64,000 nucleotides of DNA from Patescibacteria group bacterium (GTDB taxonomy: Bacteria > Patescibacteriota > Microgenomatia > UBA12405), in contig WARW01000003.1 in NCBI GenBank assembly GCA_013387215.1, forward strand, positions 10,227 to 74,226, in the 5' to 3' direction. Both the position numbers and the translations under genes were made by a program. Within the stretch, counting starts at the first letter, position 1, and each line of letters starts with the position of its first letter. This document shows positions 40,729-64,000 of this stretch, piece after piece. The notes beneath the pieces were generated by a model. The model had not been told where the DNA came from. It saw only the letters and a program-made list of their open reading frames with translations, and ran no database searches.

Positions 40729-41688
40729 ATGGGAAATATGCCAGAGACAAAAGAAATTTTTGACACAATTATTGTGGGATCAGGTCCAGCCGGATTAACA
40801 GCTGCAATTTACAATATTAGAGCAGCTTTAAAAACCGTGGTAATTGCGGGAAATCAGCCAGGCGGACAATTAACCATTACCACTTATGTTGATAATTATC
40901 CTGGTTTTCCAACCGGAATCGGCGGAGTTAAATTGATGATGGATATGCAGGCTCAGGTGAAAAATTTAGGCGGTGAAATTCGCCAAGGATTAGTAAAAGA
41001 AATTCAAAAGAAAGACGGTGTGTTTGAAGTATGTTTTAATGATGAGTCAATTCTTAAAGCCAAATCGGTGATTGTGACAACCGGCGCCAGCGCTAAATGG
41101 TTGGGACTTCCAAACGAAAAAGAATTAGTAGGTAGAGGTGTCAGCGGATGTGCAACTTGTGATGGAATGTTTTTTAAAGATAAAATTGTGGCGGTGGTTG
41201 GCGGTGGAGACACGGCTTGCGAAGATGCAGTGTTTTTAACAAGATTTGCCAATAAAGTTATTTTGATTCATCGACGAGACAAATTCCGAGCTGCACCAAT
41301 GGAGCAAAGCAAAGTGTTTGAAAATAATAAAATTGAAACTTTATGGAATACTGAAGTTGAAGAGATTATAGGAAAAGATAAACTAGAAGCCATTAAAATA
41401 ATTAATAATCAAACCAAAGAAGAAAAAGAAATTCAAATTAATGGACTATTTATGGCTATAGGCCATGATCCGGCTACTCAATTTATTAAAGATTTGGTTG
41501 AATTAAAAGAAACTGGGCAAGTTGTTGTGGGTAAAAATCAAAACTATCCAACCATGACTAACGTTGAAGGTTTATTTGCAGCTGGTGATTGTGCTGATGA
41601 TGTTTACAGACAAGCAATAGTGGCAGCGGGAAATGGCTGCAAAGCAGCCATTGATGCTCAACATTGGCTGGAAAATCAAGAAGCTTAA
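40729..41688 (+). CDS. trxB: Thioredoxin-disulfide reductase
   Basis: GSGPAG FAD motif, redox centre CATCDG, NADPH motif GGGDTACEDA, C-terminal GDC. Confidence 0.9.
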   Translation: MGNMPETKEIFDTIIVGSGPAGLTAAIYNIRAALKTVVIAGNQPGGQLTITTYVDNYPGFPTGIGGVKLMMDMQAQVKNLGGEIRQGLVKEIQKKDGVFEVCFNDESILKAKSVIVTTGASAKWLGLPNEKELVGRGVSGCATCDGMFFKDKIVAVVGGGDTACEDAVFLTRFANKVILIHRRDKFRAAPMEQSKVFENNKIETLWNTEVEEIIGKDKLEAIKIINNQTKEEKEIQINGLFMAIGHDPATQFIKDLVELKETGQVVVGKNQNYPTMTNVEGLFAAGDCADDVYRQAIVAAGNGCKAAIDAQHWLENQEA

Positions 41689-42893
41689 ATCAATTTTTTG
41701 ATTGATTTAATAAAGTTGTCTTTAGAAAAACAATCGGCTCGATTAATACAATTTTGAGATATTTTTTGAGAATCTTTTGGAGTTTTAGTAAGTTTTTCCA
41801 ATTCTTGGATTGCCCTAGCACAAGATTCCGGAGTTAATTTATCAAATAAAACTCCGGTTTTACCATCAATAACAGTTTCAGCAGTTCCACCACTTTTAAA
41901 ACCAACAACAGGACAACCAAAAGACATGGCCTCTACCGGAACCATGCCAAAATCTTCATTGTCGGAACAAAACAGAAAAGCTTTGGCTTGGAAATATAGT
42001 TTTTCTTTTTGTTCTTGATTTACTTCACCTAAAAATTCAATGGTGGGGCCAGAGATATTTTTGAGTTCATCCATAAACCCAGCAAAATCACGGCCAAATA
42101 TTTTTAATTTAAGATTCAATTGGTTGCAGGCTTTAATGGCAACATCATAACGCTTAGCTCTAGCTAGTCTGCCGCCTGCTAAAAAGTATGACTCAGATAA
42201 AATTTGGCGGTGCTCGCTACCTTCGGGCTCGACTTCGTTTCGCGTTCGCTGTGCTCCTGAAATTTTATTCTTCGTATTAACGAGCTTCGCCATTTTTGGA
42301 ATTTCTATAGGAGGATTTATAACTATACTGTTTTTACGGTAAAATTTTTCAATGCGGGCGGCAGTGGTTTGAGAATTGGCAATAAATTGATCGACGTTTT
42401 GGGCAAATCTAAAATCTAAAAATCTTAAAAAGTGATTTAAGAATTGAACTATAAAATAAATAAATTTGTTTTTGGTTAAAACTCTGGCAGTGGGCAGACC
42501 ATATAAATAACGAGGCGGAGTGTGGCAATAACAAATTAATTTAGCTTGTTTTTTGTTTAAAGCATTTGGAAAATAGGCACCAGTGGCGGAACTGATAATC
42601 AAGTCGTAATCAGAAAAATCAAAAGAATAAAAAGCTAGCGGCGAAAATAAACGAAGCGGACTGATTATTTTTCTGGCAAAAGGTATAAATTTAAAAAAGC
42701 TTTGATGAATACGACCCGCCCATTTTTTTTGAAGACGATTTTGATGAGGACCTAGAAATTTTGGGCAATAAAGTGAAGTGTAAATCGGAGCATCGGGAAA
42801 AATATCGGAAAAAGTTTCTAGAACTGACTCGGCTCCCCCAAATTCTTTTATATAATCATGAACTAGGGCTATTTTGAGTTTAGTTTGGGTCAT
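41685..42893 (-). CDS. Family-4 glycosyltransferase carrying an in-frame repeat-element segment
   Basis: GT-B C-terminal motif EDFGMVPVEAMSFGCPVV and LAGGRLARAKRYD. The inter-domain segment KISGAQRTRNEVEPEGSEHRQIL is encoded by the GC-core palindromic element. Confidence 0.8.
   Translation of the reverse strand: MTQTKLKIALVHDYIKEFGGAESVLETFSDIFPDAPIYTSLYCPKFLGPHQNRLQKKWAGRIHQSFFKFIPFARKIISPLRLFSPLAFYSFDFSDYDLIISSATGAYFPNALNKKQAKLICYCHTPPRYLYGLPTARVLTKNKFIYFIVQFLNHFLRFLDFRFAQNVDQFIANSQTTAARIEKFYRKNSIVINPPIEIPKMAKLVNTKNKISGAQRTRNEVEPEGSEHRQILSESYFLAGGRLARAKRYDVAIKACNQLNLKLKIFGRDFAGFMDELKNISGPTIEFLGEVNQEQKEKLYFQAKAFLFCSDNEDFGMVPVEAMSFGCPVVGFKSGGTAETVIDGKTGVLFDKLTPESCARAIQELEKLTKTPKDSQKISQNCINRADCFSKDNFIKSIKKLI
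42198..42267. repeat. Palindromic GC-core element, intragenic copy (G)
   Basis: AT-rich inverted arms AAAATTT/AAATTTT flank GGCGGTGCTCGCTACCTTCGGGCTCGACTTCGTTTCGCGTTCGCTGTGCTCC. It shares GTGCTCG..CCTTCG with copy A, and CGTTTCGC..GTGCTCC with copy C. Confidence 0.55.
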
Positions 42894-43876: not shown

Positions 43877-44782
43877 ATGGAACAACACGCGATTCCACAG
43901 CAGATTTCGTCCTACGAATTTAAATTAGTGGGAGAAATGACGCTAAAACAGTTTATTAAGGCAGCGGCGGGAATTATCCTGGCACTATTAATTAACGCAA
44001 CCAAATTAATTATTATTGTTAAGTGGCCTTTAATGGCAGTTTGCGCTGGAGGCGGATTACTTTTAGCTTTTGTTCCTTTTGAAGACAGACCGCTGGAAAC
44101 CTGGGCAGTAGCTTTTATTAAATCGATTTATTCCCCGACTGTTTATATTTATAAAAAAAGAGCAAGTAAAAATTGGCTAGAAATTGATTTGAATAATATT
44201 ACAGATACAGATGGTGCTGAAACAAACGATGACGAAGAAGTACTAGTGGTTAAAGATAAAACTAAAGTAAGAGAATTTATTCAATCACTGCCTTCAGTTA
44301 AAAGAGAAGTAAAAGAAGAAGTTGAAGAAGTAAAAGAAGTGAAAAAAGTACAAGTACCAGTGAGCAATCCTCAAGTGCAAACCCAAACAGAGGTGGTTAA
44401 AAATATACAAAAGACTGAGGATTGGCATGATCAAAAAACTAATTTGAATTTAAAAACCGAAAAACTCGAAGCGACAGGAAAGGCAAATTTTGGAGCAATA
44501 CCAATGCCTGATATTCCAGAAGTTCCAAATATAGTGGTAGGAATGGCGATGGATAGCAATGGTAAAATTGTGGACGGAGTGATTATTGAAATCCAAGATG
44601 AACATGGTAATCCTTCAAGAGTATTAAAAACCAATTCTTTAGGACAATTTAAAACTTCAACTCCATTAGCTAATGGAAGATATTTATTAGTTTGTGAAAA
44701 AGAAAATTTCAGTTTTGATAGGGTCAATATTGATGTTAAGGGTGAGATTATTAAACCGATAAGGATTATTGCCAATAATTAA
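43877..44782 (+). CDS. PrgI-like T4SS membrane protein with a C-terminal carboxypeptidase-regulatory-like beta domain
   Basis: N-terminus IPQQISSYEFKLVGEMTLKQFIKAAAGIILALLI plus a second TM helix. C-terminus GKIVDGVIIEIQDEHGNPSRVLKTNSLGQFKTSTPLANGRYLLVCEKENF. Confidence 0.55.
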   Translation: MEQHAIPQQISSYEFKLVGEMTLKQFIKAAAGIILALLINATKLIIIVKWPLMAVCAGGGLLLAFVPFEDRPLETWAVAFIKSIYSPTVYIYKKRASKNWLEIDLNNITDTDGAETNDDEEVLVVKDKTKVREFIQSLPSVKREVKEEVEEVKEVKKVQVPVSNPQVQTQTEVVKNIQKTEDWHDQKTNLNLKTEKLEATGKANFGAIPMPDIPEVPNIVVGMAMDSNGKIVDGVIIEIQDEHGNPSRVLKTNSLGQFKTSTPLANGRYLLVCEKENFSFDRVNIDVKGEIIKPIRIIANN

Positions 44783-44816
44783 TATATGATTAAAATATTA
44801 GTTATAAAAAAATAGT

Positions 44817-45524
44817 ATGGCTACCGATCCACTTAAAATTGCCATTAAAGGTACAACTCAAGACCATTTGCCCATCGAAGATGTGGTTGATGGAGTGGTG
44901 ATTTTGAAAGACGGATCATGTGCGATGGTAATGCAGATATCTTCCGTCAATTTTGATTTGTTATCAGAAAAGGAACAATCGGCTTTGGTTTTTGCTTATG
45001 GCGGAATTTTAAATTCTTTGAACTTTCCAATTCAAATAATTATCAGATCAAACGCTAAAGATGTGTCGGTTTATCTTAATAATTTGAAAGACGCCGAAGA
45101 AAAACAAAGCAATTCTCTTTTGAAACAAAGAATTCAACTATACCGAAAGTTTGTTGAAGAAACGGTTAAAAAAAATGATGTGTTATCAAAATCTTTTTAT
45201 GTGGTGGCTCATTTTTCTGCGTTGGAACTGGGAATAAAAAATGCCGGCAAGCAAACATTGAGCACTATTCTGCCTCCTTTAGGAAAATCGCGTTCAACAG
45301 AATTACCATTTTCCAAAGATTATATTCTAGATAAAGCAAAAGCTAGTTTGGAACCGAAAAGAGATCATTTAATGAGATTGTTTTCCCGATTAGGATTGGA
45401 AATTAAACAATTAAACACCAAAGAATTAATCGAACTGTATTATAAAATTTATAATGAAGAAACGGCTGTAAATCAGAAACTGCAAACACTGAATTACAAT
45501 GCACCAATTGTTACCACTAAATAA
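44817..45524 (+). CDS. T4SS-associated hypothetical protein, possibly related to the VirB4 N-terminal domain
   Basis: 235 aa. LPIEDVVDGVVILKDGSCAMVMQISSVNFDLLSEKEQ... resembles, by eye, the layout of the N-terminus of the following ATPase. Confidence 0.4.
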   Translation: MATDPLKIAIKGTTQDHLPIEDVVDGVVILKDGSCAMVMQISSVNFDLLSEKEQSALVFAYGGILNSLNFPIQIIIRSNAKDVSVYLNNLKDAEEKQSNSLLKQRIQLYRKFVEETVKKNDVLSKSFYVVAHFSALELGIKNAGKQTLSTILPPLGKSRSTELPFSKDYILDKAKASLEPKRDHLMRLFSRLGLEIKQLNTKELIELYYKIYNEETAVNQKLQTLNYNAPIVTTK

Positions 45525-45525
45525 A

Positions 45526-48213
45526 ATGAGTATTTTAGATAAATTAATTAAAAAACCGGCAGCTGCACCAAGTACTACTCCAAGTACAACCCAAACTGAT
45601 CCCGTTGAAGAGACCAAACCTTTTACTGAAGGATTAGTGTCGACAAAAGATATTATTGCCCCATCTGCCTTAGAAGTTGATTTTAATCATTTAAGAATTG
45701 ATAATAAATATTACCGAACTTTGTTTGTGGCTGGATATCCAAGATTTGTGGGTATTAATTGGTTGTCGTCTTTGATTAACTTTGATGCTTCTTTGAATAT
45801 TGCTATGTATGTTTATCCAACAGACGGCAAGGCAATTTTGGATGATTTGAGGCGAAAAGTAACGGAAATGGAGGCAGAAATCAGCACTGACATTCAAAGA
45901 GGTAGAGTGGTTAATCCAGCAACACAGGCTAAACTTGAAGATGCATTAAATTTGCAAGCAGATTTAGTAAAAGGTGAAGAAAGATTTTTTCAATTTGGAC
46001 TTTATATTACGATTACTTCAGATTCAAAAGAAGAATTAAACAGAATCAATAAAAATTTGGAAGCAGCTTTGGGATCACTTTTAATTGTGAGCAAAAAAGC
46101 TACTTTGCAAATGGAAGAAGGATTTGTGACCACTCTCCCCGCTTGCGACGATAAACTGCAAATTACCCGAAACATGGATACGACTTCACTAGCCACTACT
46201 TTTCCATTTGTGTCTTCTGATTTATCAGATGATAAAGGAATAATGTATGGAATTAATGCCCACAACGGGTCTTTAGTTATCTTCGACCGATTCTCGATGC
46301 AAAACTACAATTCAGTAGTATTTGCAACTGCCGGTGCCGGAAAGTCTTACATGATAAAACTTGAGGCATTAAGATCTTTAATGCTTGGTTCAGAAATAAT
46401 TGTAATTGATCCAGAAAACGAATATAGAGATTTGTGTGAAGCAGTTGGCGGACAATATATTGCCTTTGGATATGGTGAAGTTTCAAAAATTAATCCTTTT
46501 GATTTATCTTTGGTAGAAGAAGATGGTGAAAATGCTTTAAACAGCAAAGTTTTAAGTCTTCATAAACTTTTCAAAGTGATGATTGGAGCTATGGATCCAA
46601 TTGAAGAATCTATCCTAGATAAGGCAATTATGGAAGCTTATAAAGCTAAGGGAGTGACACCAGATCCAGAAACACAAAAGAGAGAACCCCCGTTGATTGA
46701 AGATTTATATAAAGCATTAATCGGGATGGAAGAACAAAAAGCCCAAAGTTTGGCTGCCCGATTTGAAAAATTTATTAAAGGTTCGTTTGCTGGAATATTT
46801 AATCAAAAGACAACAGTTAATTTGACTAATCCGTTTGTGGTTTTTGGAATTAAAAATCTTGAAGATGCTTTAAGACCAGTAGCTATGCAAATTATTTTGG
46901 ATTACATTTGGACAGTAGTTAAAGCAACTTTAAAAAGAAGAATCTTAGTGGTCGATGAAGCTTGGTATTTGATGCAATATGATGATTCAGCAGAGTTTTT
47001 AAGAGGAATAGTAAAAAGAGGCCGAAAATATTATTTAGGAGTAACAACAATTACCCAAGATGTGGATGATTTTTTGAAAACTAGTTATGGAAAGGAAATT
47101 GTGACTAACAGTGCTATCCAAATTCTTTTAAAACAACATAGTGCGGCAATTGATCAAATCGGTGAAGTTTTTTATTTATCGGAAGGAGAAAAACAATTAT
47201 TATTAAGCGCAGATAAAGGTGAAGGAATATTTTTTGCCGGTCAAAATCATGTGGCTATTCGAGTTATCTCTTCCGATGACGAACATCAATTAATTACTTC
47301 CAACCCAGAAGAGGTTTTAAAAATTAAAAAAACCCAAGCACAAGCTCAAGATTTACCCAAGCCTCCAGTGTTTCCTCCAATAAAAGAAAGTCCTGTGGTT
47401 AATGCTCAGCCAATCAATAATCCAACTCCGATAAATAAACCAATAATTGAAACTAAACCGGAAATTCCTATGACTCCTCCAACATTAGTTGTTGAAAAGG
47501 TAGTGGAAATTAAAATGCCAGAAATTAAGACTCAAGAGACAAATAATGTCAATCCAAGCCCGGTAATAAATAATCCGACACCAGTAAGTCCAACTGTTTT
47601 ACAAACTCCAGCAAGCAATTCTGGGAATCGACCAGAAGTGGTAGTTTTAGATTTACAACAAAGAATTAATGAACTTGAGGAAAAAGAAAAAATAGAATTA
47701 AAAGAACATCAAGAAAAAGAAGAACAAATTAAGCAGGCAAACCAAACACCGGTGTTTACAAAAGAAGGTGAATTGCCAAAGTATCAAGATATATTTAAAA
47801 CACCAAATCCAGTTCAAACAAACCAACTTCCTCCTCTGCCAAAATTAGACCAACCAGTAAATAATAATGTGATTTTAAAAACGGAAACAATTGGAAACTC
47901 AACAAATAATTCTCAATCAAATAATTTGGAAAACAAAAAACCAATCTTTTTGAATCAAGTTGAACAAAAAATTCCGCAGCCACCACAACTGGCCAAAAAA
48001 ATTGTGCCAGAATTTGTGGCGCCAACTCAAAAAACTCCAAGCCAATCTCCTACTCCGACAAGTGAAATAAAACTGCCACCAGTAAAAGCAGCTTCGATTA
48101 ATCCAATACAAACTCCGATTGCAAAAGTAGAAACTCCTAGCACTAATACAGACAAACCTAAAGAAGAGAAAAAACTGAATTATGATGATATTTTTGGTGA
48201 CGGGATTGTGTAA
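45526..48213 (+). CDS. virB4: VirB4/TrbE/PrgJ-type T4SS ATPase with a ~290-aa Pro/Gln/Asn-rich C-terminal tail
   Basis: Walker A ATAGAGKSY (46323-46349), Walker B RILVVDEAW and the N-terminal YYRTLFVAGYPRFV pattern. The start is ATG 45526, 1 nt after the upstream stop. Confidence 0.85.
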   Translation: MSILDKLIKKPAAAPSTTPSTTQTDPVEETKPFTEGLVSTKDIIAPSALEVDFNHLRIDNKYYRTLFVAGYPRFVGINWLSSLINFDASLNIAMYVYPTDGKAILDDLRRKVTEMEAEISTDIQRGRVVNPATQAKLEDALNLQADLVKGEERFFQFGLYITITSDSKEELNRINKNLEAALGSLLIVSKKATLQMEEGFVTTLPACDDKLQITRNMDTTSLATTFPFVSSDLSDDKGIMYGINAHNGSLVIFDRFSMQNYNSVVFATAGAGKSYMIKLEALRSLMLGSEIIVIDPENEYRDLCEAVGGQYIAFGYGEVSKINPFDLSLVEEDGENALNSKVLSLHKLFKVMIGAMDPIEESILDKAIMEAYKAKGVTPDPETQKREPPLIEDLYKALIGMEEQKAQSLAARFEKFIKGSFAGIFNQKTTVNLTNPFVVFGIKNLEDALRPVAMQIILDYIWTVVKATLKRRILVVDEAWYLMQYDDSAEFLRGIVKRGRKYYLGVTTITQDVDDFLKTSYGKEIVTNSAIQILLKQHSAAIDQIGEVFYLSEGEKQLLLSADKGEGIFFAGQNHVAIRVISSDDEHQLITSNPEEVLKIKKTQAQAQDLPKPPVFPPIKESPVVNAQPINNPTPINKPIIETKPEIPMTPPTLVVEKVVEIKMPEIKTQETNNVNPSPVINNPTPVSPTVLQTPASNSGNRPEVVVLDLQQRINELEEKEKIELKEHQEKEEQIKQANQTPVFTKEGELPKYQDIFKTPNPVQTNQLPPLPKLDQPVNNNVILKTETIGNSTNNSQSNNLENKKPIFLNQVEQKIPQPPQLAKKIVPEFVAPTQKTPSQSPTPTSEIKLPPVKAASINPIQTPIAKVETPSTNTDKPKEEKKLNYDDIFGDGIV

Positions 48214-48247
48214 GTTTTAGGTCTGAATGATTGATATAATTTGTATA

Positions 48248-48281
48248 AACAGTGCCTTGTTAATATCTAACACTGTTTTTT
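48248..48281 (+). terminator. Rho-independent terminator after the VirB4-like gene
   Basis: AAACAGTG-15 nt-CACTGTTT followed by TTT. The stem is AT-rich and the loop is long, so the call is moderate. Confidence 0.5.
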
Positions 48282-48316
48282 ACGCTTTTGTAAATTTTAT
48301 TTATATCTTGTAATAA

Positions 48317-51300
48317 ATGCCAGATCTAGCGACTGCTCAGAAAAATCCGATTGAGAAAAAAATAGACTACTTAAATGCGAGTGAAATTTCGACTCCTGAA
48401 GAAGCTATTGAGGTATTAAGAGAACTAAGAAATATTGGTGGAAAATTAATTAAAGGAAGTGTTCTTGAAAAAAGTATTGAGAATTATTTAGGCGAACTTG
48501 AGGTTTATGATGTGCCAAGCGTTATTGAAGCATTGAAAGACTTTGAGACAAAGACGGATGATAATTTTGATAAAGCGGCAGTTCCAGTCGCAAAAATTGA
48601 TGAATTAGTAGACGAATATGAAGAATATCTAGAAAAAGGATTTGACAGTGAAGAGGCTGCAGATAAAATTTATAAAGAAAATAAGGGATTAATTTCAAGA
48701 AAAACTATTGATAGTTTTGTTCAAAGACAACGAGAAATTTTTGAAAACAATTTAAAGAAAGTAAATGAAACTAAAAAACCTTTAACTCAGGAAAAATTAA
48801 TCGATTTAAATAAATACCGACAAGAAAGTGAAGCGACAACTCAAAACATAAAGACAGGTTTTAATGAAAAAGATAATAATTCCGAAAATAATGTAATTGA
48901 TTTAGGGAAATATAAGCAAAATACGATTGATGATTTTTATGATTTAAAACCAGACGTAAAAGAAAATAAAAAATATGATTTAAAACCAGAAAATAAAGCG
49001 AAAAAAGTTATTGATTTGGACTCATATATTCAAGGAAAAGAAGAGGTTGAAGATATAACTACTAATACTGATGCAGGAAAATATGAATCAAATAAAAATA
49101 AAGTAGAAGAACAAGTTGAAATAATCAGTAAAGAACAATTTAAATTTGAGAATAAAGTTGAAGAAGAATTATTAAAGTATCAAAAACAAGACATAAAATC
49201 AGACAGCAGTGTTGATGAAAAAGTAAAAGAAGAATTAAAAAAAGTATCAAGAGATATTTCAAAACAAACATTCGAATCTGTAGTTTTAAACGAAAAAGAT
49301 GTGGATATAGAAACAGTTGATAGAGTTGTAGAAAAGATAAGCGATGAATTGCCTTACTCCATAATTAAACCAGAAGAAAAAGAAACATTTAAAGCTAATT
49401 TAAAAGAAGAAATTGAAGTCGTTACCGCTAATATTGCCGTTGAAGCAAAAACTGAGGAAATTAGCCAGAAAATAATTTTAGAATTAAAGAAAGACGAAAG
49501 AACCGAGGAATTAATTAAGAGAAACAGCGACGTTGTTGAAAATAAAATCGAGACAGCAGTTAAGAATGTAATTTTAGGCGAAGAGGTTGTTACTAAAACA
49601 GAGCAAATAAATGACTTAAATTCCGAAATTATTAGGATTCTAAAAGAAGAAGATGTGAGCGACTTTAAACACGAAGCTCCAGTAAATAAAACCGCCATAA
49701 AAACAATCGATTTAGAATTAAATAAATGGGTAGAAACAAATAGAGAAACGGTTCAAGATTTTAGAGGCGATCATCTTGAAAAAATAATTGATCTTCAAAT
49801 CCAAAAAGAAAATCCATATTTAAGCGAAGAACAAAAAGTCCAAGTCCAAAAATATAAACAATTAATCAGAGAAATATATTATTCCGACAGCACACTTGAA
49901 AAATATAAAAATGATGCCGTAAATAATGCCTCTAAAACTAATAGTCCAGGACAAATAAATCAAGCTTGGACCGATTTAAAAGGAATAACAAATTTACTTA
50001 AAAAAAAGCCTGGGGATGTTAAAGATATTTTTAAAAGATATGATGACATTAAAAAGGGACTTGGCAATATTAATTTACCTTTTGATATTAAAGAATGCCG
50101 ATCTTTTGAGAATATTGCAAATGTTTTAACTAATCCCCAAATTAACGTTTTATTTGGAAAAGCGCAAAAATACATTACTTATCTAGAAAAATTAGATAGC
50201 TTTTCAGGAGGACTTTTGGGAAAAGCCGGAATGAAGGGGGCTAATTATATTATAGAGAGAATTGGCAACCAGGCAGTAAAGGCTTTTGCAGAAAATTCAT
50301 TAAAAATAATTGCAGAAAAAGGTTTACAGGAAGGTTTTGGAATTGTATTGAGAGGAATTTTAAGTGGTGGTGTGCAAGCTGGTGCTAGCGCAGCCGCCAG
50401 CGGAGCTGCAGTAGCAGGTGGAGCAGCGGCAACAGGAGTAGCAGTAGTCGGAGGGGCGGCTTTATCAGCAACAGGAGTTGGAGCAATTGTAGTAGCGGCA
50501 GCGACAGTTTTAGGAGTAGTAAAAAAAGTTGTTAATAAAATAAAAGATGGGATTTTAAAATCTTTAGGGATTGAGTCTGGTTTATTTGGAGCTAAACAGT
50601 TTTTTCAGGATAATTTTGGTAAAGGTTTAGGTGGAATATTAGGTAAAGGAGTAGAGTTAGTAGAATTATTAGTAGTAGGAACCATTGCTTTGGTTGCAGC
50701 TGTTTCAGCAGCAGCAGTCGGCCCAATAATAATTGCCTTTTTTGTGGGATTATTTGGATATCAAATGCTTCAAGGACACACTGTTTCCAGTTTAGTTCCA
50801 CCAACCACACTCCAAGACAGCACAGATATAAATGAGGAAGGCGGACAAGTTTTTGATCCAGGCAGTGTTCATAGTTTAAATTTAAGTTTTAATGTGCCAG
50901 TGGTAGGCGCTGAGTTTACTCGAGCGGATTTAGTGAATGTGGCCCAATCATTATTGGGATTACCTTATTTTTGGGGCGGAAAATATCCTCATAAAGGAGC
51001 AAACCCTAGCTGGGGGCAATTAAAAACAGTAACTGCTGATAAGAGTTGGTCAACCGGACTCCAAATTCCATCAGGATTAGATTGTTCTGGATTCGTTGAT
51101 TGGGCTTATTTTCAATTAACAGGCAGACAAATTTCAAACGGCGGCGGATCGGCAGATATCTGCAATTTAGCGGCACCAGTGGCTAGAGCAAGCTTAAAAG
51201 CTGGAGATGTGGGTTGTATGGATGGCCATGTAGCATTGTGTATTGGAACTGATCCGACAGATGGAGAGCCATTATTTATCCAAGCTGTTGGTCAAAGATA

Positions 51301-51430
51301 TAGAGATAATTCAAAAGGGTTGGTGGCTGGTCAAGTTTTGATATTAAAAGAAGGGATAGAATATAATGGTTATGTAGGACCTACTTTTACTAGTTACGGA
51401 CGACCAAATGTTACTTTTAAGGATAATTGA
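48317..51430 (+). CDS. Large T4SS protein: acidic repeat-containing N-terminal region, Gly/Ala-rich polytopic segment and C-terminal NlpC/P60 peptidoglycan hydrolase
   Basis: 1037 aa with TM-rich aa ~660-800 (GGVQAGASAAASGAAVAGGAAATGVAVVGG...). NlpC/P60 motifs are GLPYFWGGKYP, GLDCSGFVDWAY (Cys codon 51084-51086) and GHVALCIG. Confidence 0.75.
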   Translation: MPDLATAQKNPIEKKIDYLNASEISTPEEAIEVLRELRNIGGKLIKGSVLEKSIENYLGELEVYDVPSVIEALKDFETKTDDNFDKAAVPVAKIDELVDEYEEYLEKGFDSEEAADKIYKENKGLISRKTIDSFVQRQREIFENNLKKVNETKKPLTQEKLIDLNKYRQESEATTQNIKTGFNEKDNNSENNVIDLGKYKQNTIDDFYDLKPDVKENKKYDLKPENKAKKVIDLDSYIQGKEEVEDITTNTDAGKYESNKNKVEEQVEIISKEQFKFENKVEEELLKYQKQDIKSDSSVDEKVKEELKKVSRDISKQTFESVVLNEKDVDIETVDRVVEKISDELPYSIIKPEEKETFKANLKEEIEVVTANIAVEAKTEEISQKIILELKKDERTEELIKRNSDVVENKIETAVKNVILGEEVVTKTEQINDLNSEIIRILKEEDVSDFKHEAPVNKTAIKTIDLELNKWVETNRETVQDFRGDHLEKIIDLQIQKENPYLSEEQKVQVQKYKQLIREIYYSDSTLEKYKNDAVNNASKTNSPGQINQAWTDLKGITNLLKKKPGDVKDIFKRYDDIKKGLGNINLPFDIKECRSFENIANVLTNPQINVLFGKAQKYITYLEKLDSFSGGLLGKAGMKGANYIIERIGNQAVKAFAENSLKIIAEKGLQEGFGIVLRGILSGGVQAGASAAASGAAVAGGAAATGVAVVGGAALSATGVGAIVVAAATVLGVVKKVVNKIKDGILKSLGIESGLFGAKQFFQDNFGKGLGGILGKGVELVELLVVGTIALVAAVSAAAVGPIIIAFFVGLFGYQMLQGHTVSSLVPPTTLQDSTDINEEGGQVFDPGSVHSLNLSFNVPVVGAEFTRADLVNVAQSLLGLPYFWGGKYPHKGANPSWGQLKTVTADKSWSTGLQIPSGLDCSGFVDWAYFQLTGRQISNGGGSADICNLAAPVARASLKAGDVGCMDGHVALCIGTDPTDGEPLFIQAVGQRYRDNSKGLVAGQVLILKEGIEYNGYVGPTFTSYGRPNVTFKDN

Positions 51431-53441: not shown

Positions 53442-53755
53442 TGGCTTTATGTTATCAACAAATTAACAAAGTTTAAAGCTCTTAATAAAATTAAATATTT
53501 ATATCAAGAATAGTAGTAGGTATTAGTAGGGAGAGTGAATAAGTGGAGTATTTTTTAATTTGACCGAAAATTTGGCAATTTTTAAATAAAATAGTGGTGG
53601 AAAGTATTAAAATGGTTGTAGTAGTGGTGAAAAAAGATGTTTTTATCTTATAAGGTAAACTTGAGTTTGGGTAAGTTTCGGGGGAAAAGACAAAATTAAA
53701 ATGTGGATAAGTTTGTGGATAAGTGGAATCCAAGTGTGGAAAACTTCAGACAGGG
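53442..53755. other. oriC: Candidate oriC segment (dnaA-dnaN spacer) with a DnaA-box cluster and an AT-rich stretch
   Basis: Two perfect boxes and one near-perfect box at 53702-53743, TTATCAACA at 53452-53460 and an AT-rich tract at about 53461-53515. Confidence 0.7.
53702..53743. promoter_or_regulatory. DnaA boxes: TGTGGATAA (53702-53710), TGTGGATAA (53714-53722), TGTGGAAAA (53735-53743)
   Basis: The first two are the exact reverse complement of the consensus TTATCCACA. All three have the same orientation. Confidence 0.8.
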
Positions 53756-55196: not shown

Positions 55197-55228
55197 TTAT
55201 CCACATTATAATAAAGTAGTTTTCCACA
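55197..55228. promoter_or_regulatory. DnaA boxes upstream of dnaA: TTATCCACA (55197-55205) and TTTTCCACA (55220-55228)
   Basis: One perfect consensus box and one single-mismatch box in the dnaA/rpmH divergent spacer. Confidence 0.75.
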
Positions 55229-55323: not shown

Positions 55324-55461
55324 ATGTCTAAGCAAACTTTTCAACCAAAAACTAAAAAAAGAACCAGAGTTCACGGATTTTTAAAAAGAATGATGTCTCA
55401 TGACGGCCGAAACGTTTTAAAAAGAAGAAGAGCTAAAGGTAGAGCAAAACTAACGGTATAA
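55324..55461 (+). CDS. rpmH: 50S ribosomal protein L34
   Basis: A 45-aa ORF not in the track: [45 protein letters not shown]. It occupies the canonical position before rnpA. Confidence 0.95.
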
Positions 55462-58587: not shown

Positions 58588-59805
58588 ATGTTAAAGAAAC
58601 CGATTATTAATACGGCAGTACAAGTGTTTGGTAAAGGAATTACTGTTTTAATTAGCTTGGTAACAACCGGTATTTTGACCAGAAAATTAGGACCGGATGT
58701 TTACGGCAGTTATACATTAGTAACTTCGGTGTTTATTATTCTTGATTCTTTGGCGGATTTCGGCACAAAAATTATTGGTGTCAGAGAAGCATCTTTGAAA
58801 ACTGGCAAAGAAAGAGAAAATATTTTTATTCAAGCAACCTGGCTGAGATTAATGACTTCAACAATTGCCTTTTTAGTTGGACTTTTGGTGATATTTTTAT
58901 GGAATGGATTTGCGGAAATTAGAATTGAATCGTTAGTTTCTTTATCGATGATTTGGTTCACTTCAATTGCGGGGAGCTTAGAAATCGTGTTTCAAACGAA
59001 ATTGAGAATGGATTTGAAAGTATTAATTGATATCGTATTCCCCTCTTTATTTTTGATTGCCCTTTTAAGTTGGAATAAACCAATTACTTTATTGTGGGTG
59101 TTTGGAGTTTATTTGCTAGCCAGAATCATTAGTTTAGTGTTTGGAATCGGATTGGTACGAGAAGTGTTTAATTTGGAAGCAATTAGATCAATAAACTGGG
59201 TATTTTTGAAAAAATTTTTGAAAGAATCTTGGCCAATGGGAATGTATTTAATCGTATTTGCCGGTTATGACCGGGCTATCGATTCCCTATTGATTCAAAA
59301 ATATATCGGCATTAAAGAAGTCGCTTTTTACGGTTTGGCTTATAAAATCTATTCTAATTTAATCCAACCGGCTTATTTTTTTGTGAATAGTATTTTTCCT
59401 TTGATGTCTTCTGAAACCACAGAAAGAAGAAAATTGTTTAAATCTTCAACTTTACTAATCGTTTTAGGTTTGATTTTACTCATTCCAACAGTTTATTTAC
59501 TCTCCCCTTTTATTATTAACGTGCTTGGAGGCGCTAGTTTTGCACCATCTATTCCGGTTTTAAGGGTGCTTTTAATTGCTTTGGCTTTCTCATATATCGG
59601 CCACTTGGTTGGATTTACTTTGATTGCTAAAGGCGGGCAAAAAGATATTTTGATTTTTAGCTTAATTTCGTTAACAGTGAATATTGCTGCAAACCTATGG
59701 GCGGTTCCCCGCTATGGAATGATGGGTGCAGCGGTGGTGACAGGCATAACTGAAGCTACTAATTGTATTTTGATGAGTTGGAGACTTTGGAAAAAGGCTA
59801 GGTAG
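58588..59805 (+). CDS. Polysaccharide flippase (Wzx/MOP superfamily)
   Basis: 405 aa with about 12 TM helices and an N-terminal VFGKGITVLISLVTTGILTRKLGPDVYG pattern. Confidence 0.7.
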   Translation: MLKKPIINTAVQVFGKGITVLISLVTTGILTRKLGPDVYGSYTLVTSVFIILDSLADFGTKIIGVREASLKTGKERENIFIQATWLRLMTSTIAFLVGLLVIFLWNGFAEIRIESLVSLSMIWFTSIAGSLEIVFQTKLRMDLKVLIDIVFPSLFLIALLSWNKPITLLWVFGVYLLARIISLVFGIGLVREVFNLEAIRSINWVFLKKFLKESWPMGMYLIVFAGYDRAIDSLLIQKYIGIKEVAFYGLAYKIYSNLIQPAYFFVNSIFPLMSSETTERRKLFKSSTLLIVLGLILLIPTVYLLSPFIINVLGGASFAPSIPVLRVLLIALAFSYIGHLVGFTLIAKGGQKDILIFSLISLTVNIAANLWAVPRYGMMGAAVVTGITEATNCILMSWRLWKKAR

Positions 59806-59813
59806 TGTTTTAT

Positions 59814-59892
59814 ATTTAGCTTTGTAATTTGCAGTGCTCGAGCCTTCGTAATATCCACTCAGATACTGCGCGCTTAAATAACAAAGCTAAAT
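59814..59892. repeat. Palindromic GC-core element copy A
   Basis: Arms ATTTAGCTTTGT / ACAAAGCTAAAT (12 bp, perfect) flank the core AATTTGCAGTGCTCGAGCCTTCGTAATATCCACTCAGATACTGCGCGCTTAAATA. Confidence 0.6.
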
Positions 59893-59904
59893 TTATTCCA
59901 TTTT

Positions 59905-59978
59905 TTTTAGATCGTGATTTGCGGTACTCACGCGTTCACTTTGTTCACATGATTCCGTTCCTAAATCACGACCTAAAA
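59905..59978. repeat. Palindromic GC-core element copy B
   Basis: Arms TTTTAGATCGTGATTT / AAATCACGACCTAAAA (15 of 16 complementary) flank the core GCGGTACTCACGCGTTCACTTTGTTCACATGATTCCGTTCCT. Confidence 0.6.
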
Positions 59979-60318
59979 TAATATACATTTGATATATTCC
60001 CCTAGCTAAAATAATGACGTTTTTACAACGTGAAAACCCCTAAAATCAGTACTGTGCTGACATTTTTTTGATAGAAAATTTTTTCTTTTCAAGATTCCCC
60101 TCTCGGAACCAGGTTCGATTTTGAAAAATACCATCTGAACTCGTTTGTATTTACATTAAAAATACTTACATATATCTATAATCACGTCATTACATTTTTT
60201 CACGTTACTCCTTATAATTAATTAGCTTGGTTATGACTATTTTTGGCAAGTAATAACCGCATAATAACCGATTTATTACCGTAAGAAAATAGTAAACATT
60301 TAAACTAAAATAAGTAGT

Positions 60319-63300
60319 ATGAACTCCGATTTACCAAACGCTTTAATTATTGGAATCGGACATTTTGCTGCTAAAAAACTAGCCGAAGAAATTGTAAGTA
60401 AAGACATTAACGTGGTAGGAGTGGGGGAATATGTGGATGGGTTGAATGAGATTAAGAATTTCAATTATTTTGCTAATTTAGAGGAAGTAGAGGGTAATTT
60501 TAATTATGTTTTTGATTTTAACGGGGATCTTGGAGCTTGGAATAATTTAGTGGAAGAAAGTGAAAAAATAACCATAATTTGCATTAATAACCAGTTGAAG
60601 TCAGAGCAATTGCAAGGCCAGTTGAAAAACAATAAGTTGAATTGGCGATTGGTGGAAGCTAATGGAGTATATGGGCCGGGGATGGATGATAATGAAGAAA
60701 GCAAAGATACTGGATTTTTAGTGGCGGCTTTTAAACAAGCAGTACTTAATAAAAATTTATTGCTGCCACCAGTAGAGGATAGATTTAGGTTGTTGTGTGT
60801 GGAAGATTTGGTAGATGCAGTTTTAAGAGCAAGTTTTTTGTCCGGAACTGAAGAAGAAATTTATACGTTAGCGGGAAGTGAAATTAATTCAGAAATATTA
60901 GCCGGCGTTTTGATAAACGAGGCTAAGATGACAAGGTATAAGGTGATGCAAAAAAAGATGGAACTTTTGGAATGGGATGAAAAGAAAATTTTGGAAACTC
61001 AAAAGAAACTGAGATGGCAGGCAAGGATTGATTTTAATGATGGAGTTAAAGAAACGTTGCAATATTTTTTTGTAAAAATAGATGAAGAAAGTAGAAGAAA
61101 ACCTGAGAAAAAAGAAGTGAAGAAAACAGTAATTTTGCCGGAAGTTGAAGAAAAAAGAGAAAGCCCTAAAAAATCATTTGAAGTAATTGTGGAAGAAAAA
61201 ATTGAAGAAGAACCGGTAAAAATAATTGAAGAGGAAGAAGTAAAAGAGGTGGAAAAGCCAATAGAAAAGGAAATAATTAAGAAAGAAGAAAAAAAAGAGG
61301 AACACCCAACTCATATTTTTAAACCATTGTCGTTTGAAGAAAAAAAAGAAGAAGAAGCAGTTTTGGTTGAAGAAATGGACGATTTTAGTCAATTTGTGGT
61401 AAAGAATTCAAACATGAGACAGGCAAGAAGCGAGCCGGTTGAGGAAAGTAAACCAGAAGAGAAAAAACCAGAAATAATAGAAGAAAAAAGAACGGAAAAG
61501 AAGAATAGAAGACCAAGCTTAAAAATAAAAATAAATAAGAAAGCCTTAATTTTTGCGATTGTTTCAGTATTAATTGTGGTTTTAGCCGTGCCAGTCGGTT
61601 GGGGAATCTCGACTTATAAGGCTTGGAAAAGCATAAATGAAATATCAGTTTTGACTAAAAATAAAAAGTATACTGAAGCTGAAAATTTGGGAAATAAGCA
61701 TTTGATTAAACTGAGAACGATTGATGGAAAAATTGACGATTGGGGATTAAATCAATTTGCGGGAATGCGGCATTATCAAACTGTTATTAAAGCGGAAGAA
61801 GAAGCATTGGGACTAGAAAGCAAATTGGTTGAATTGGCCCAATCGGGAGATGAAATAAATGATGCGATTTTTAAAAACAAAGCCATAGATTGGGATAAGG
61901 AATTAAATTCAGTTTCGGGAAATTTAGATGATGTTTCAAGCAAAATCGGAGTGCTTCAAGCCAGACTGAGTGGAGATTGGGAGTGGCTGCCAATGAGATG
62001 GAGAAGCGGACTGCAGAAGAAAATTGCTGACCTGAATCAAGGCAAAAAATATATTGAGTTATCTTCAAAAGCAATAAAAATTGCTCCGGACTTTTTGGGT
62101 TTAGATGGAAAGAAACGAGAATATTTAGTTTTGCTTCAAAATGAAACAGAAATAAGACCTGGCGGCGGATTTATTGGCTCATATGGGCTTTTGAGTTTCG
62201 AGAAGGGAAAGCTTTTAAATTTTGAAATCAAAGATGTTTATGAGGCTGACGGCCAGCTGAATGGACATGTGGAACCACCAGAAGAAATCAAAAATTATTT
62301 GGGAGAAGCCAACTATTATATGAGAGATGCAAATTGGAATGCTAATTTTCCAGATGCAGCAGTTGATTTACAATGGTTTTTAGACAAGGAAACTGGCAAA
62401 AAAGTAGATGGGGTGATTGGAATTAACTTGGGAGTGGCAAGAGCAGTTCTTGGGGCTGTTGGAGAGGTATTTGTCCCTGATTTTAAAGAAAGGATTAATA
62501 AAGATAATTTGTATGAACAAGCAGAATTTTATGCCGAAACAAAATTTTTCCCAGGATCAACTCAAAAGGCAAGCTTTTTGGGAGGTTTAGGAAAACAATT
62601 ATTTGATAATATTCAAAACCTAAAAGCTGATCAGAAATTAAGTTTAGTGGAAGCCTTAATCGACTCTTTGCAAAAAAATAATATGCAGATTGCACTTAAT
62701 AATAAAAATTCTGCCAATGTTTTGGCGGATTTGAATTGGAATGGAGCCATATATCAGGGAAAATGCGGAGTGGAGGGTTGCATTAGTGATTATCTGTATG
62801 TGGTTGAAGCTAATTTGGGAGTAAATAAAGCCAACTACTTTTTGTATCGAACCATGGAAGAAACAGTTGATTTTTCCAACCAATCTTTAAGCCGAGTATT
62901 AAAAATCAATTATGAAAATACGGCTAAAAATGCTAATTGGCCAGGCGGTGACTATAAAAACTATATGAGAATTTATTTGCCAAGCAATGTCAATTTGTCA
63001 CAAGTAAGTTTGATTGATACCAATAATCCAACATCTAAAAAAACATATTCTGATGGGGAGTTGAAAATAAGAGAAATTAATGGAAAAAAAGAAATTGGTT
63101 TTCTGATGACAGTGCCAGTTTCGACCAAAAGAACTGTGGAAGTCAGATATTCAACCGGAATTGATTTGAGTAAAATGAATAAAATTTCTTATGTTAATTA
63201 TTTTCAAAAACAATCAGGTTTTGGAGATACAGGTTTGGTTACTTTAATTTCATATCCACCAGAATGGCAGGCAGTTCAAGTGCAACCTACTGCTAGTTTA

Positions 63301-63372
63301 GTGGGAGGAAAACTATTGTTTAATTCTAAATTGGATCAGGATATTAAGATGGGGATTGAGTTGGACAAATAA
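60319..63372 (+). CDS. Fusion protein: Rossmann/epimerase-like N-domain, Glu/Lys-rich linker, TM helix and extracytoplasmic DUF4012 domain
   Basis: IIGIGHFAAKKL (GxGxxA) and YGPGMDD, then an about 150-aa E/K-rich region, the TM helix ALIFAIVSVLIVVLAVPVGWGI, and the DUF4012-like EYLVLLQNETEIRPGGGFIGSYGLL. Confidence 0.7.
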   Translation: MNSDLPNALIIGIGHFAAKKLAEEIVSKDINVVGVGEYVDGLNEIKNFNYFANLEEVEGNFNYVFDFNGDLGAWNNLVEESEKITIICINNQLKSEQLQGQLKNNKLNWRLVEANGVYGPGMDDNEESKDTGFLVAAFKQAVLNKNLLLPPVEDRFRLLCVEDLVDAVLRASFLSGTEEEIYTLAGSEINSEILAGVLINEAKMTRYKVMQKKMELLEWDEKKILETQKKLRWQARIDFNDGVKETLQYFFVKIDEESRRKPEKKEVKKTVILPEVEEKRESPKKSFEVIVEEKIEEEPVKIIEEEEVKEVEKPIEKEIIKKEEKKEEHPTHIFKPLSFEEKKEEEAVLVEEMDDFSQFVVKNSNMRQARSEPVEESKPEEKKPEIIEEKRTEKKNRRPSLKIKINKKALIFAIVSVLIVVLAVPVGWGISTYKAWKSINEISVLTKNKKYTEAENLGNKHLIKLRTIDGKIDDWGLNQFAGMRHYQTVIKAEEEALGLESKLVELAQSGDEINDAIFKNKAIDWDKELNSVSGNLDDVSSKIGVLQARLSGDWEWLPMRWRSGLQKKIADLNQGKKYIELSSKAIKIAPDFLGLDGKKREYLVLLQNETEIRPGGGFIGSYGLLSFEKGKLLNFEIKDVYEADGQLNGHVEPPEEIKNYLGEANYYMRDANWNANFPDAAVDLQWFLDKETGKKVDGVIGINLGVARAVLGAVGEVFVPDFKERINKDNLYEQAEFYAETKFFPGSTQKASFLGGLGKQLFDNIQNLKADQKLSLVEALIDSLQKNNMQIALNNKNSANVLADLNWNGAIYQGKCGVEGCISDYLYVVEANLGVNKANYFLYRTMEETVDFSNQSLSRVLKINYENTAKNANWPGGDYKNYMRIYLPSNVNLSQVSLIDTNNPTSKKTYSDGELKIREINGKKEIGFLMTVPVSTKRTVEVRYSTGIDLSKMNKISYVNYFQKQSGFGDTGLVTLISYPPEWQAVQVQPTASLVGGKLLFNSKLDQDIKMGIELDK

Positions 63373-63382
63373 ATTTTGTTTC

Positions 63383-63478
63383 GTTTTGAGATTTCCGGTG
63401 TCCTCTAAAAGGACTCGCTTCGCAGCGCTCACGCGTTTCGCTTCGCTCACATGATTGTGCTCCGTAGAATCTCAAAAC
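63383..63478. repeat. Palindromic GC-core element copy C
   Basis: Arms GTTTTGAGATT / AATCTCAAAAC (11 bp, perfect). The core shares CTCACGCGTT and TCACATGATT blocks with copy B. It lies 10 nt after the DUF4012 gene stop. Confidence 0.6.
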
Positions 63479-63545
63479 TTCACTTTATATCGTGCTAAAA
63501 ATTTCTTTTGCTTCGCCAGCATTATTTGATTGATAAAATAGGGAT

Positions 63546-63839
63546 ATGAAAATGAAAAAAGTGGTGGAGAATTTTAGATGTGAAAATTGCGGTTTTGAAA
63601 TGAAAGGCGATGGCTGTACTGATCATTGCTCACAGTGTTTATGGGGAAAACATGTGGATGAAGCAGTGCCTGGCGATAGGTTAAGCGGTTGCAAAGGTTT
63701 GATGGAGCCGATTAGAACCAGCTATCAAAATGATAATTTTAGAATTTATTACAAGTGCACTAAGTGTAATCATGATTTTTGGGTTAGGGAAGGCAAGGAT
63801 GATAATAGAGATAAATTAATTGAATTGAGTGGTAATTAA
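63546..63839 (+). CDS. RNHCP-domain zinc-ribbon protein
   Basis: FRCENCGFE ... CTDHCSQCLWGKHVD ... GDRLSGCKGLMEP ... CTKCNH, a Cys pattern typical of the RNHCP family. Confidence 0.65.
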   Translation: MKMKKVVENFRCENCGFEMKGDGCTDHCSQCLWGKHVDEAVPGDRLSGCKGLMEPIRTSYQNDNFRIYYKCTKCNHDFWVREGKDDNRDKLIELSGN

Positions 63840-63844
63840 TTAAC

Positions 63845-63933
63845 AAGTAAATAAATTTTTGCTACGAATTTTTTTCTCCCTCAATGCGTTACCGCGTTGA
63901 AACTCGTAAAAAATTGTAGCCTTAAATTTACTT
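63845..63933. repeat. Palindromic GC-core element copy D (more divergent)
   Basis: Imperfect long arms AAGTAAAT..GCTACGAATTTTTT / AAAAAATTGTAGC..AAATTTACTT surround the core CTCCCTCAATGCGTTACCGCGTTGAAACTCG. It lies 5 nt after the RNHCP gene stop. Confidence 0.45.
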
Positions 63934-64000
63934 CGAGAATAGAATTAATTGCGGAATAAAATCGGTTAATATACGGTAATATTTTTATCAGTTAGCTATA

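Follow-up and report, generated by a model that had tools for sequence, protein, structure and literature searches.

A Shapirobacteria-wide superfamily of hairpin modules adjoining genes beside the chromosomal origin

Genomes of the candidate phyla radiation (CPR, Patescibacteria) are usually seen as streamlined and repeat-poor. Short GC-rich palindromes in AT-rich DNA are familiar from yeast and other fungal mitochondria, where GC clusters and double-hairpin elements of ~30–50 nt are dispersed in spacers, occur optionally from strain to strain, sometimes sit in frame in a coding gene (var1) and are spread by gene conversion. Modules that are likewise GC-rich, palindromic, optional and sometimes in frame are described here from a 64,000-nucleotide stretch of a CPR genome (contig WARW01000003.1; hereafter the window), although the organellar elements are shorter and lack a conserved long AT stem with a T-run and an A-run. 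The window has four such intergenic elements, A–D, and a further copy, F, within a GT4 glycosyltransferase gene; together they represent a superfamily of 85–105-nt hairpin modules that occurs across the Shapirobacteria and adjoins origin-side genes. As a description, the family itself, its structure, slots, orientation and turnover are secure, whereas its functional assignment is not. With somewhat less than even confidence, we read the modules as co-transcribed RNA hairpins marking the 3' ends of mRNAs, or the junctions between cistrons, in an origin-proximal gene array, and as having spread by duplication and gene conversion. A full-text literature search returned no description of these repeats, or of a similar repeat family, in CPR/Patescibacteria.

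The ERIC/IRU, BOX and SPRITE-type repeats of enterobacteria and pneumococci are imperfect palindromes of ~100–130 nt found intergenically near gene 3' ends; these repeats are co-transcribed, are thought to affect mRNA stability and contain no internal transposase, and in the modular BOX the interior varies while the ends stay constant (PMC3184786). The present elements resemble them as palindromic modules near gene 3' ends. Unlike those families, they keep to one origin-proximal array and to one orientation, the arms covary where ERIC-type terminal repeats are conserved in sequence, no TA or other target-site duplication and no terminator-like U-tract accompanies them, and sequence similarity is absent.

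Repetitive extragenic palindromes (REPs) measure 20–40 nt, carry a terminal GTAG/CGTC tag, are abundant genome-wide and often form head-to-head or tail-to-tail dimers, and REPs and the mosaic elements that contain them (BIMEs) are extragenic stem-loops 3' of genes that are recognised as single-stranded hairpins and mobilised by RAYT, an IS200/IS605-like Y1 enzyme (PMC3733652). The modules share with REPs a location mostly between co-directional genes, an occasional intragenic copy and the absence of a target-site duplication (PMC3733652). They differ in their length and in stems of ~25–30 bp, in feet of the form TTTGGC...GCCAAA or variants (GTAG/CGTC occurs only inside some cores and is not constant), in an exclusively head-to-tail arrangement without dispersal, and in that no RAYT was seen in the 64-kb window. 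MITEs (miniature transposable elements with inverted repeats) fit no better, since only the T-run and A-run of the modules are invariant in place of sequence-conserved terminal inverted repeats, and a target-site duplication is again absent.

Rickettsia palindromic elements (RPEs), according to the summary in PMC3184786 (Ogata et al. 2000 as cited there), are ~105–146 nt long and occur in a reduced AT-rich genome, either intergenically or in frame, where they add a surface peptide. Element F and its orthologues, in frame in the GT4 linker, recall them in behaviour only. RPEs hit many genes, whereas one coding slot is known here; the same core occurs in two reading frames, the lineage differs as does the sequence, the CGTC tag is missing, and the copies cluster near the origin.

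The GT4 gene gave the way into the family. Comparison of 120 GT4 orthologues at the interdomain linker showed that a linker insert of ~25 aa, with related peptides, is present in some and absent from others, and the insert DNA of one of them (locus L001; loci from other genomes carry the prefix L) matched the core of the intergenic element A at ~75% identity. When 83 metagenomic loci centred on DUF4012 (L089, L097, L098 and L108 among them stem from anaerobic digester, groundwater and activated-sludge samples) were searched with A, F and the L001 insert as queries, ~40 matches appeared, all on the DUF4012 strand. Covariance models were then built from 29 seed copies, 28 from other genomes plus A. 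One of them, R2, was run unfiltered over the window, and its top four matches, all on the plus strand, were A (69.9 bits, E=1.9e-14), F (34.7 bits, E=1e-5), B (27.5 bits, E=6e-4) and D (25.2 bits, E=2e-3). Because B, D and F were outside the seed, their recovery is an independent confirmation, and the intragenic copy mentioned in the sequence-only reading of this DNA proved to be F, the second-best hit. Over the DUF4012 loci, the window and L001, the covariance models returned 57 matches at E<0.01, representing 49 distinct sequences; nhmmer and two covariance models together placed 55 plus-strand copies in the 83 loci and the window. Other Microgenomates loci, totalling 1.28 Mb, gave a single match with the same models.

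The hairpins that had been pointed out as A, B, C and D were significant at their places. As RNA they folded with z=-4.2 (A, -24 kcal/mol), z=-4.5 (B), z=-3.2 (C) and z=-4.6 (D) against 200 dinucleotide shuffles, and as DNA with z=-3.2 to -4.1 against the same number. It is true that AT-rich DNA yields many weak inverted repeats (213 pairs in the window) and that F folded as single-stranded DNA, like the weaker candidate hairpin E, was no better than shuffles. That the modules are chance structures of such DNA can nevertheless be practically dismissed, being refuted by the covariance-model matches, whose best E-values ran from 1e-14 to 1e-20, by ~50 homologous copies in independent assemblies and by strong covariation in the stems. 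The sequence-only reading would have been refuted by a lack of further copies and of covariation. Both were found, and the ~50 further copies in the 83 related loci together with stem covariation support a real repeated structured family. Its fifth hairpin, E (60086–60133), was rejected as a member, since its RNA fold (z=0.05) was no better than chance and E is a conserved spacer motif. The motif it holds, GGTTCG(G)A, is conserved in L081 and stands beside type-I copies in L089 and L101.

Known RNA families did not account for the modules. Rfam 15 gave no gathering-level match in the window, only sub-threshold miRNA-hairpin noise at A and B, and no match to canonical copies from L089, L097, L108 and L121; scans of the window for tRNAs or known RNAs found none. 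A protein-database search with the sense-frame translations gave no match, the query being too short for 5.8 billion sequences.

The copies fall into two sequence families with one design, type I (A, B, C and F) and type II (D), so that the grouping of A–D as one family held for A, B and C, while D stood apart as a separate sequence family of the same architecture. Type I comprises the core subtypes G (ACCGTGCTCACGCCCTTCGGTAGTGCACCTCGGATGTTGCGCGCGG), A (TCGGGCTTGCAACCATCGTAATATCCACTCAGAGGCGTCGCCCTGC), F, which carries an extra apical hairpin, and H. The cores have a GC content of 0.50–0.57 against ~0.32–0.35 for the genome, as had been noticed from the sequence, and the mosaic sharing of core motifs was likewise borne out: the window contains CTCACGCGTT at exactly two places, one in B and one in C, the sole two exact matches of TCACATGATT lie in the same elements, and ATTTGCRGTRCTC is matched exactly in A and B only. 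The arrangement CTCACGCGTT-N8/9-TCACATGATT is common to B and C, and the shared 10-mers and 13-mer are exact and confined to these elements. Local alignment related B to C (z=10.2), A to F (z=3.7) and C to F (z=4.3); MAFFT alignment of the four window copies was uninformative, the copies being too diverged.

The positions of the elements and of their host or neighbouring genes are collected in the table. Element A begins 5–8 nt past the flippase stop codon, C 10 nt past that of DUF4012 and D 5 nt past that of RNHCP, in agreement with the placement after gene stops first noted for them. The 20-nt arms of A (59811–59830 and 59876–59895) are 90% complementary with a perfect 12-bp core, and the slot of A is also filled in L093, L087, L112, L097, L101, L160 and L117. 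B has arms of 19 nt (59902–59920 and 59963–59981; 89%), and its core is similar to an L131 variant, GCTCGCGCGTTTCGG...CCTCACATGA. C has perfect 11-nt arms (63383–63393 and 63468–63478) enclosing a 74-nt core of 57% GC. The R2 scan of the window did not detect C, because it is too heavily rearranged; it is placed in the family because it is tied to it through B and F and because its slot is occupied by the family in many genomes, with type-I copies in L089, L120, L121, L098, L146, L116, L135 and L136 and a type-II copy in L097. An orthologue of D lies at 14914–14995 of L081 and is absent in L082. An nhmmer profile of D found 11 more D-type copies in other loci, all on the plus strand and in the same region, with the consensus ..TTACGAATTTTTT-nnCTCAGTCAATG(hairpin)CGTTGAARTTCG-AAAAAATTGTAA.., and it is through the common stem design that the type-I model still scores D. 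A GNRA loop considered on the minus strand of D was dropped, as other D-type copies have different loop sequences.

Positions of the hairpin modules and of the genes that hold or precede them in the window
Feature	Position	Strand	Description
Element F	42187-42279	+	Type-I module, F-type core; in the interdomain linker of the GT4 glycosyltransferase gene, antisense to the gene
GT4 glycosyltransferase gene	41685-42893	minus	Pfam domains: Glyco_transf_4 at residues 18-196, Glycos_transf_1 at residues 234-376
Wzx-type flippase	58588-59805	+	
Element A	59811-59896	+	Type-I hairpin module, A/G hybrid core; flippase-DUF4012 spacer slot
Element B	59901-59983	+	Diverged type-I module; tandem, a few nt 3' of A
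DUF4012 protein	60319-63372	+	1017 aa
Element C	63380-63481	+	Rearranged type-I module with extra internal hairpins; slot right after the DUF4012 stop
RNHCP protein	63546-63839	+	Small protein
Element D	63845-63933	+	Type-II ("D-type") nested hairpin; RNHCP-ftsH spacer slot

The common structure starts with an outer stem of ~6 bp, often lengthened by flanking TTAAT/ATTAA, above which the helix is interrupted by a small internal loop that is asymmetric (left side T(C/T)G, right side CT(G/T)C). The inner AT stem then ends with an invariant run of 4–6 T paired to a 3' run of 4–6 A, and above it stand a GC stem of 5–6 bp, a conserved GC-rich top of ~30 nt and an optional, variable extra hairpin. 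The consensus reads TTTGGC-T(C/T)G-ATAAYATTTTT on the left and AAAAATRTTAT-CTGC-GCCAAA on the right, a helix of ~24–30 bp interrupted by the asymmetric loop. In the model-guided alignment, which is itself fitted to the structure, 89.4% of cells were paired, against 67.5% in column shuffles and 41–55% with slid partners; changes on both sides occurred in 22 of 26 pairs, and the covariation score, 0.498, exceeded those of shuffles (0.149) and of slid partners (0.105 at most). The lower stem and GC stem together had changes on both sides in 20 of 24 pairs, the arms differing between copies. Plain MAFFT alignment with RNAalifold already showed compensatory pairs, such as U-G/G-C/A-U at one position of the GC stem and U-A/G-C at an apical one. 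The T-run, the A-run and core positions including GCUC, CCnUCG and CUCrGA are invariant, and the apical hairpin varies in length. This pattern of covariation indicates a structure under selection.

Most copies start 0–30 nt past the stop codon of a plus-strand gene, and the flanking genes were oriented (+,+) for 37 copies, (-,+) for 6, (+,-) for 4 and (-,-) for 1. In the window, the genes 3' of the origin form a co-directional array of rpmH, rnpA, yidD, yidC, jag/khpB, an O-antigen-ligase-like gene, the flippase, DUF4012 and RNHCP, and ftsH is the next gene in syntenic relatives. The recurrent slots of the modules span this array, ~14 kb to the right of oriC in the order rpmH-rnpA-yidD-yidC-jag-wzy-flippase-DUF4012-RNHCP-ftsH: they are the dnaA-rpmH spacer and the positions after yidC, jag, wzy, the flippase (A and B), DUF4012 (C), RNHCP (D) and ftsH. 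Gene order in the array is unchanged with or without a module. The one extra slot outside it is the in-frame position in the GT4 linker, which is itself origin-proximal and syntenic, ~10–12 kb on the other side of dnaA.

Sampled within about ±10 kb of two marker genes and in this window, the confinement was pronounced. All 67 placements lay within -9 to +5 kb of the DUF4012 stop codon, and 309 kb of sampled flanks held zero copies. Element-bearing loci had one copy, F, in 209 kb outside the array, where ~22 would be expected from even spread; the other 55 kb of the window likewise contained F only. Type I and type II were confined alike. A single orientation, the sense of the array, was kept throughout, including F, antisense to GT4, and the copy at 11180 of L098, antisense between two minus-strand genes.

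Ordinary intrinsic terminators of independent origin at each gene end are a natural thought for GC-rich stems directly past stop codons, all the more as no canonical terminator was predicted at these gene ends by a terminator scan. This explanation appears very improbable. The T-run comes before the GC stem and what follows it is an A-run, the consensus terminator scan was silent on A–D, one copy lies within coding sequence, and the cores are conserved over slots and species, which makes the copies homologous, not convergent. The suggestion of a terminating or otherwise 3'-structuring role made from the sequence alone therefore stood in its placement and sense orientation, and failed in the A-run in place of a U-run and in the silent scan.

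Integron attC sites at the ends of gene cassettes offer another parallel, and a still less probable one. Like attC, the modules are imperfect hairpins (attC ~60–140 nt) with structure conserved over sequence, an unpaired central spacer or loop and a variable terminal structure, set one to a gene after successive genes and in one orientation. Unlike attC, they lack RYYYAAC (R'') and GTTRRRY (R') core sites in their consensus feet and inner stems; the window encodes no integrase, and in place of cassettes the modules are flanked by syntenic housekeeping genes (rnpA, yidC, jag, ftsH) in the same order with or without a module.

The location beside the origin raises the idea of a host DNA element, a polar array of hairpins or cruciforms on one side of oriC that would help to organise or segregate the chromosome, or act in priming and in the loading of replisomes. 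The array starts in the dnaA-rpmH spacer, which carries DnaA boxes, and runs ~14 kb to one side only, in one orientation, with two unrelated core families behaving alike; the sole outlier slot, GT4, is also origin-proximal in conserved synteny, the structure is kept where a copy is antisense to a coding gene, and T-run and A-run are invariant. Against this, slot occupancy varies and close relatives are without most copies, so that the array is not essential for replication; the confinement is based on limited sampling; and no known origin, parS or primosome-site motif is present. We regard the idea as improbable, and no more probable is its specific form, an oriC-anchored polar array of fixed slots with exchangeable GC-rich cores read by a conserved factor on single-stranded or extruded DNA. 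A DnaA box or parS sought in the core gave only partial matches, in some subtypes: ATCCAC of the A-type core amounts to 7/9 of a DnaA box, and the other core types do not have it.

The GT4 copy allowed the constraint on the modules to be examined within a protein. F lies in frame between the Glyco_transf_4 and Glycos_transf_1 domains, and the linker module is intact or decaying in eight species, always antisense, being intact in seven species besides that of the window. Covariance-model scores were 54–88 bits for GT4-linker copies and 20–35 bits for decayed F-type copies. In the GT4 copies the hairpin is kept: 86% of their cells are paired (shuffles, 67%), and both sides have changed in 18 of 26 pairs. 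In L001 and L169, whose GT4 host proteins are only ~68–69% identical to that of the window, 41 of 43 nt of the G-type core are identical in spite of different reading frames, giving FRAQHPRCNTEGREHG and FSARNIRGAMPKGVST, respectively, the frame shift being taken up in the T-run and A-run. Since the same core nucleotides are read in two frames, the constraint or homogenisation acts on nucleotides and not on the peptide. AlphaFold2 predicted a confident GT-B fold (mean pLDDT 84.7) in which the module-encoded residues 212–231 form an unstructured loop (pLDDT <50); by this model, F is a palindromic repeat in frame that does not disrupt the protein fold.

The linker slot also holds other sequences. 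An unrelated double-hairpin insert, AATAAAACC-TCCCTGTCAAGGGAGG-ATGTCGATTTATCGACAGGT-GGGTTTTATT, occupies the same slot in the GT4 linker of L170 (~1625–1680), and peptides like those of this insert (SLSREDVDLSTGG, ALSREGARRAEG) occur in many GT4 orthologues. The insert-free linkers of L002–L005 (e.g., L003 10580–10625) contain a 14-nt tandem direct repeat, ATCTACGATCKAAY twice, whose reverse complement resembles the left arm of B, TTAGATCGTGAT; the resemblance may be due to chance.

Turnover of the modules between genomes is seen among the closest syntenic relatives, L081 and L082, whose DUF4012 proteins are 70% and 62% identical to that of the window, respectively. A, B and C are absent from both, with only degenerate remnants in the A slot; comparison at orthologous sites, which had been proposed as a check, thus found L082 without any of A–D and L081 retaining only D. 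Near-identical copies at different slots of one genome reached 89–99% identity (L097, 99%; L098, 95%; L136, 91%; also L096 and L108). Copies in the same slot of different genomes were no more alike (0.54) than copies in different slots (0.53), and a single slot holds different core types in different genomes. Tandem copies occur as A beside B and in L089 and L143. Within-genome identity, slot-independent similarity and the A/B/C/F mosaics together point either to duplication with gene conversion or to insertions that recurred at the same slots.

A close rival of the RNA reading is that the modules are selfish, non-autonomous mobile DNA, moved or copied as single-stranded DNA hairpins without any host function and with merely incidental effects on neighbouring genes. 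The enzyme would be an HUH/Y1 transposase in the style of REP/RAYT or of IS200/IS605 and its palindrome-associated elements (PATEs), or a structure-specific recombinase, encoded elsewhere in the genome. We consider this possible, if less probable than not. Such elements would account for near-identical copies in different slots, for tandem copies (A/B, L089, L143), for decayed remnants in the A slot of L081 and L082, for covarying arms around a conserved core, and for one absolute orientation whatever the local gene strand, two antisense slots included. Unrelated hairpin types hit the same slot, as in the double hairpin of L170, terminal inverted repeats are not conserved in sequence, and the in-frame insertion slot has its counterpart in Rickettsia palindromic elements (PMC3184786).

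A target-site duplication had been suggested as a test; the boundaries of 41 copies, near-identical within-genome pairs included, showed no direct repeat, which fits this rival. Other observations stand against mobile DNA. The window encodes no transposase or integrase, with no Y1_Tnp or other transposase domain in open reading frames of at least 90 aa, and no lone arms flanking a gene or transposase were found in 170 loci. Copies in dozens of species are confined to ~14 kb beside oriC instead of being dispersed, and orientation is not mirrored across oriC, F lying ~11–13 kb to the left of the DnaA-box clusters in the same orientation as A–D. The core is 90–95% conserved between species whose DUF4012 or GT4 proteins are each only ~50–70% identical to that of the window, and viral contigs held no copies of the G-type or A-type core. 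The sequence-only reading had offered three options, REP/MITE-like mobile repeats, 3' transcript structures and small RNAs. The label of REP- or MITE-like repeats agrees with the near-identical copies in different slots, the presence/absence pattern and the in-frame copy, and disagrees with the missing GTAG/CGTC tag, the missing target-site duplication, the covarying arms and the lack of dispersal. As for element C, its interpretation as a gene-deletion scar was dropped: L081 (13082–14605) and L082 (13103–14650) have an extra gene of 507–515 aa without a Pfam hit between DUF4012 and RNHCP, this gene is missing from the window and from most other Shapirobacteria loci, and many of the loci without it have a module in that slot.

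The reading as RNA hairpins is favoured because the copies stand in the sense orientation just past stop codons and upstream of promoter-like blocks, because their interrupted helix is long, because an unpaired core is conserved while the apical hairpin varies, and because they are restricted to one co-directional array. In the A and D slots, the copies lie 5' of conserved promoter-like blocks of the next gene. Homologous RNase III hairpins of phage T7, which have an asymmetric internal loop and lie between co-directional genes, leave a protective 3' stem on the upstream message. The present modules resemble them in the asymmetric internal loop, the intercistronic position and the sense orientation, and possess an RNase III-type feature in an interrupted helix of at least ~20 bp between cistrons in the sense orientation. 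Unlike the T7 hairpins, they are longer, have a conserved GC-rich top and variable occupancy, and include one antisense copy in coding sequence.

A possible course of events for the RNA hairpins begins with transcription of each module together with its upstream gene. At the 3' end of an mRNA or between two cistrons, the transcribed module would then form a long, interrupted helix, serving either as a signal for processing or stability (cut by an RNase III-type enzyme or blocking 3' exonucleases) or as a non-canonical termination signal, and the conserved top may bind a trans factor conserved in the lineage. Copies would be propagated and overwritten through duplication and gene conversion, which would account for the mosaic cores, and the GT4 copy may be a tolerated by-product held similar by conversion.

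Several findings weigh against this preference for RNA. The U-run 5' and the A-run 3' of the hairpin are the reverse of an intrinsic terminator. The antisense copies at L098 11180 and in GT4 (8 species, one slot) run counter to their local genes, and as the GT4 copies keep the hairpin, a function purely in the mRNA sense is insufficient. Among 63 sampled (-,-) gaps, no copy stood in the sense orientation at minus-strand genes. L082, without A–D, and L081, retaining only D, imply that the modules are not essential. G-U and A-C counts of 52 and 44 gave no strand asymmetry, so that the folding strand, and RNA versus DNA, are not readable from the sequence. The limited range of the sampling for confinement belongs to the same side.

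New in this work are a defined family, a working covariance model and strong covariation, combined with three unusual traits (confinement to ~14 kb beside the origin, strict single orientation and slot-wise turnover of cores) and with a Rickettsia-style in-frame insertion that is conserved in nucleotides, not in peptide. Should the modules act as RNA, they would offer a first access to operon processing or termination in organisms whose canonical terminators are difficult to detect. As mobile single-stranded-DNA elements, they would imply an enzyme that has escaped recognition, and the oriC-anchored array, if true, would be an origin-associated cis element of a new kind, found in ultra-small CPR bacteria. 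In any case, the modules explain length variation of a conserved glycosyltransferase and serve as strain markers, and masking them is advisable in annotation, where they could otherwise be called as small open reading frames.

The window has ~32% GC, and its proteins, by sequence comparison, are nearest to Candidatus Shapirobacteria of the CPR/Microgenomates group. The chromosomal origin region sits near the window end, with dnaN and dnaA on the minus strand. Canonical DnaA boxes (TTATCCACA) flank dnaA on both sides, and their perfect or near-perfect clusters, at 53702–53743 (minus) and 55197–55228 (plus), make the origin bipartite. A small rpmH reading frame (~55326–55460) lies immediately 5' of rnpA. 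The cumulative GC skew of the window keeps rising across the origin without a turn.

Further observations concern the spacers and the rest of the window. A motif of ~30 nt, ..CCGCATAATAACCGATTTATTACCG.. / TTGCGGAATAAAATCGGTTAATATACGGTAA, stands 5' of DUF4012 (60255–60285, plus) and, inverted, 5' of ftsH (63941–63975); it recurs in both syntenic relatives (L081 9935–9965 and 15000–15030; L082 9935–9965 and 14955–14985) and is a candidate operator or shared regulatory site. The block TTGATATATTCCCCTAGCTAAAATAA (59989–60015), between the A slot and DUF4012, is near-invariant in six genomes, with a hexamer spacing unlike that of a standard sigma-70 promoter. At 22032–32831, about seven paralogous genes of roughly 460–520 aa form a run, six being plus-strand genes in tandem and the remaining one a minus-strand gene; three scanned paralogues (22032–23420, 23494–25023 and 25069–26613) belong to the sulfatase family, the other four being grouped by size alone. 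From GT4 to dnaN, a type IV secretion-like cluster (43877–51430) encodes PrgI-like and TraC-like proteins, a VirB4/TraG P-loop ATPase and a 1037-aa NlpC/P60 protein, and its synteny is kept in L001, L003, L004 and L164. Finally, a different palindrome, of 79% GC and with perfect arms (GTTCTCCCTTTGCC...GGGTCAAAGGGAGAAC), occurs at 5955–6020 of L005.

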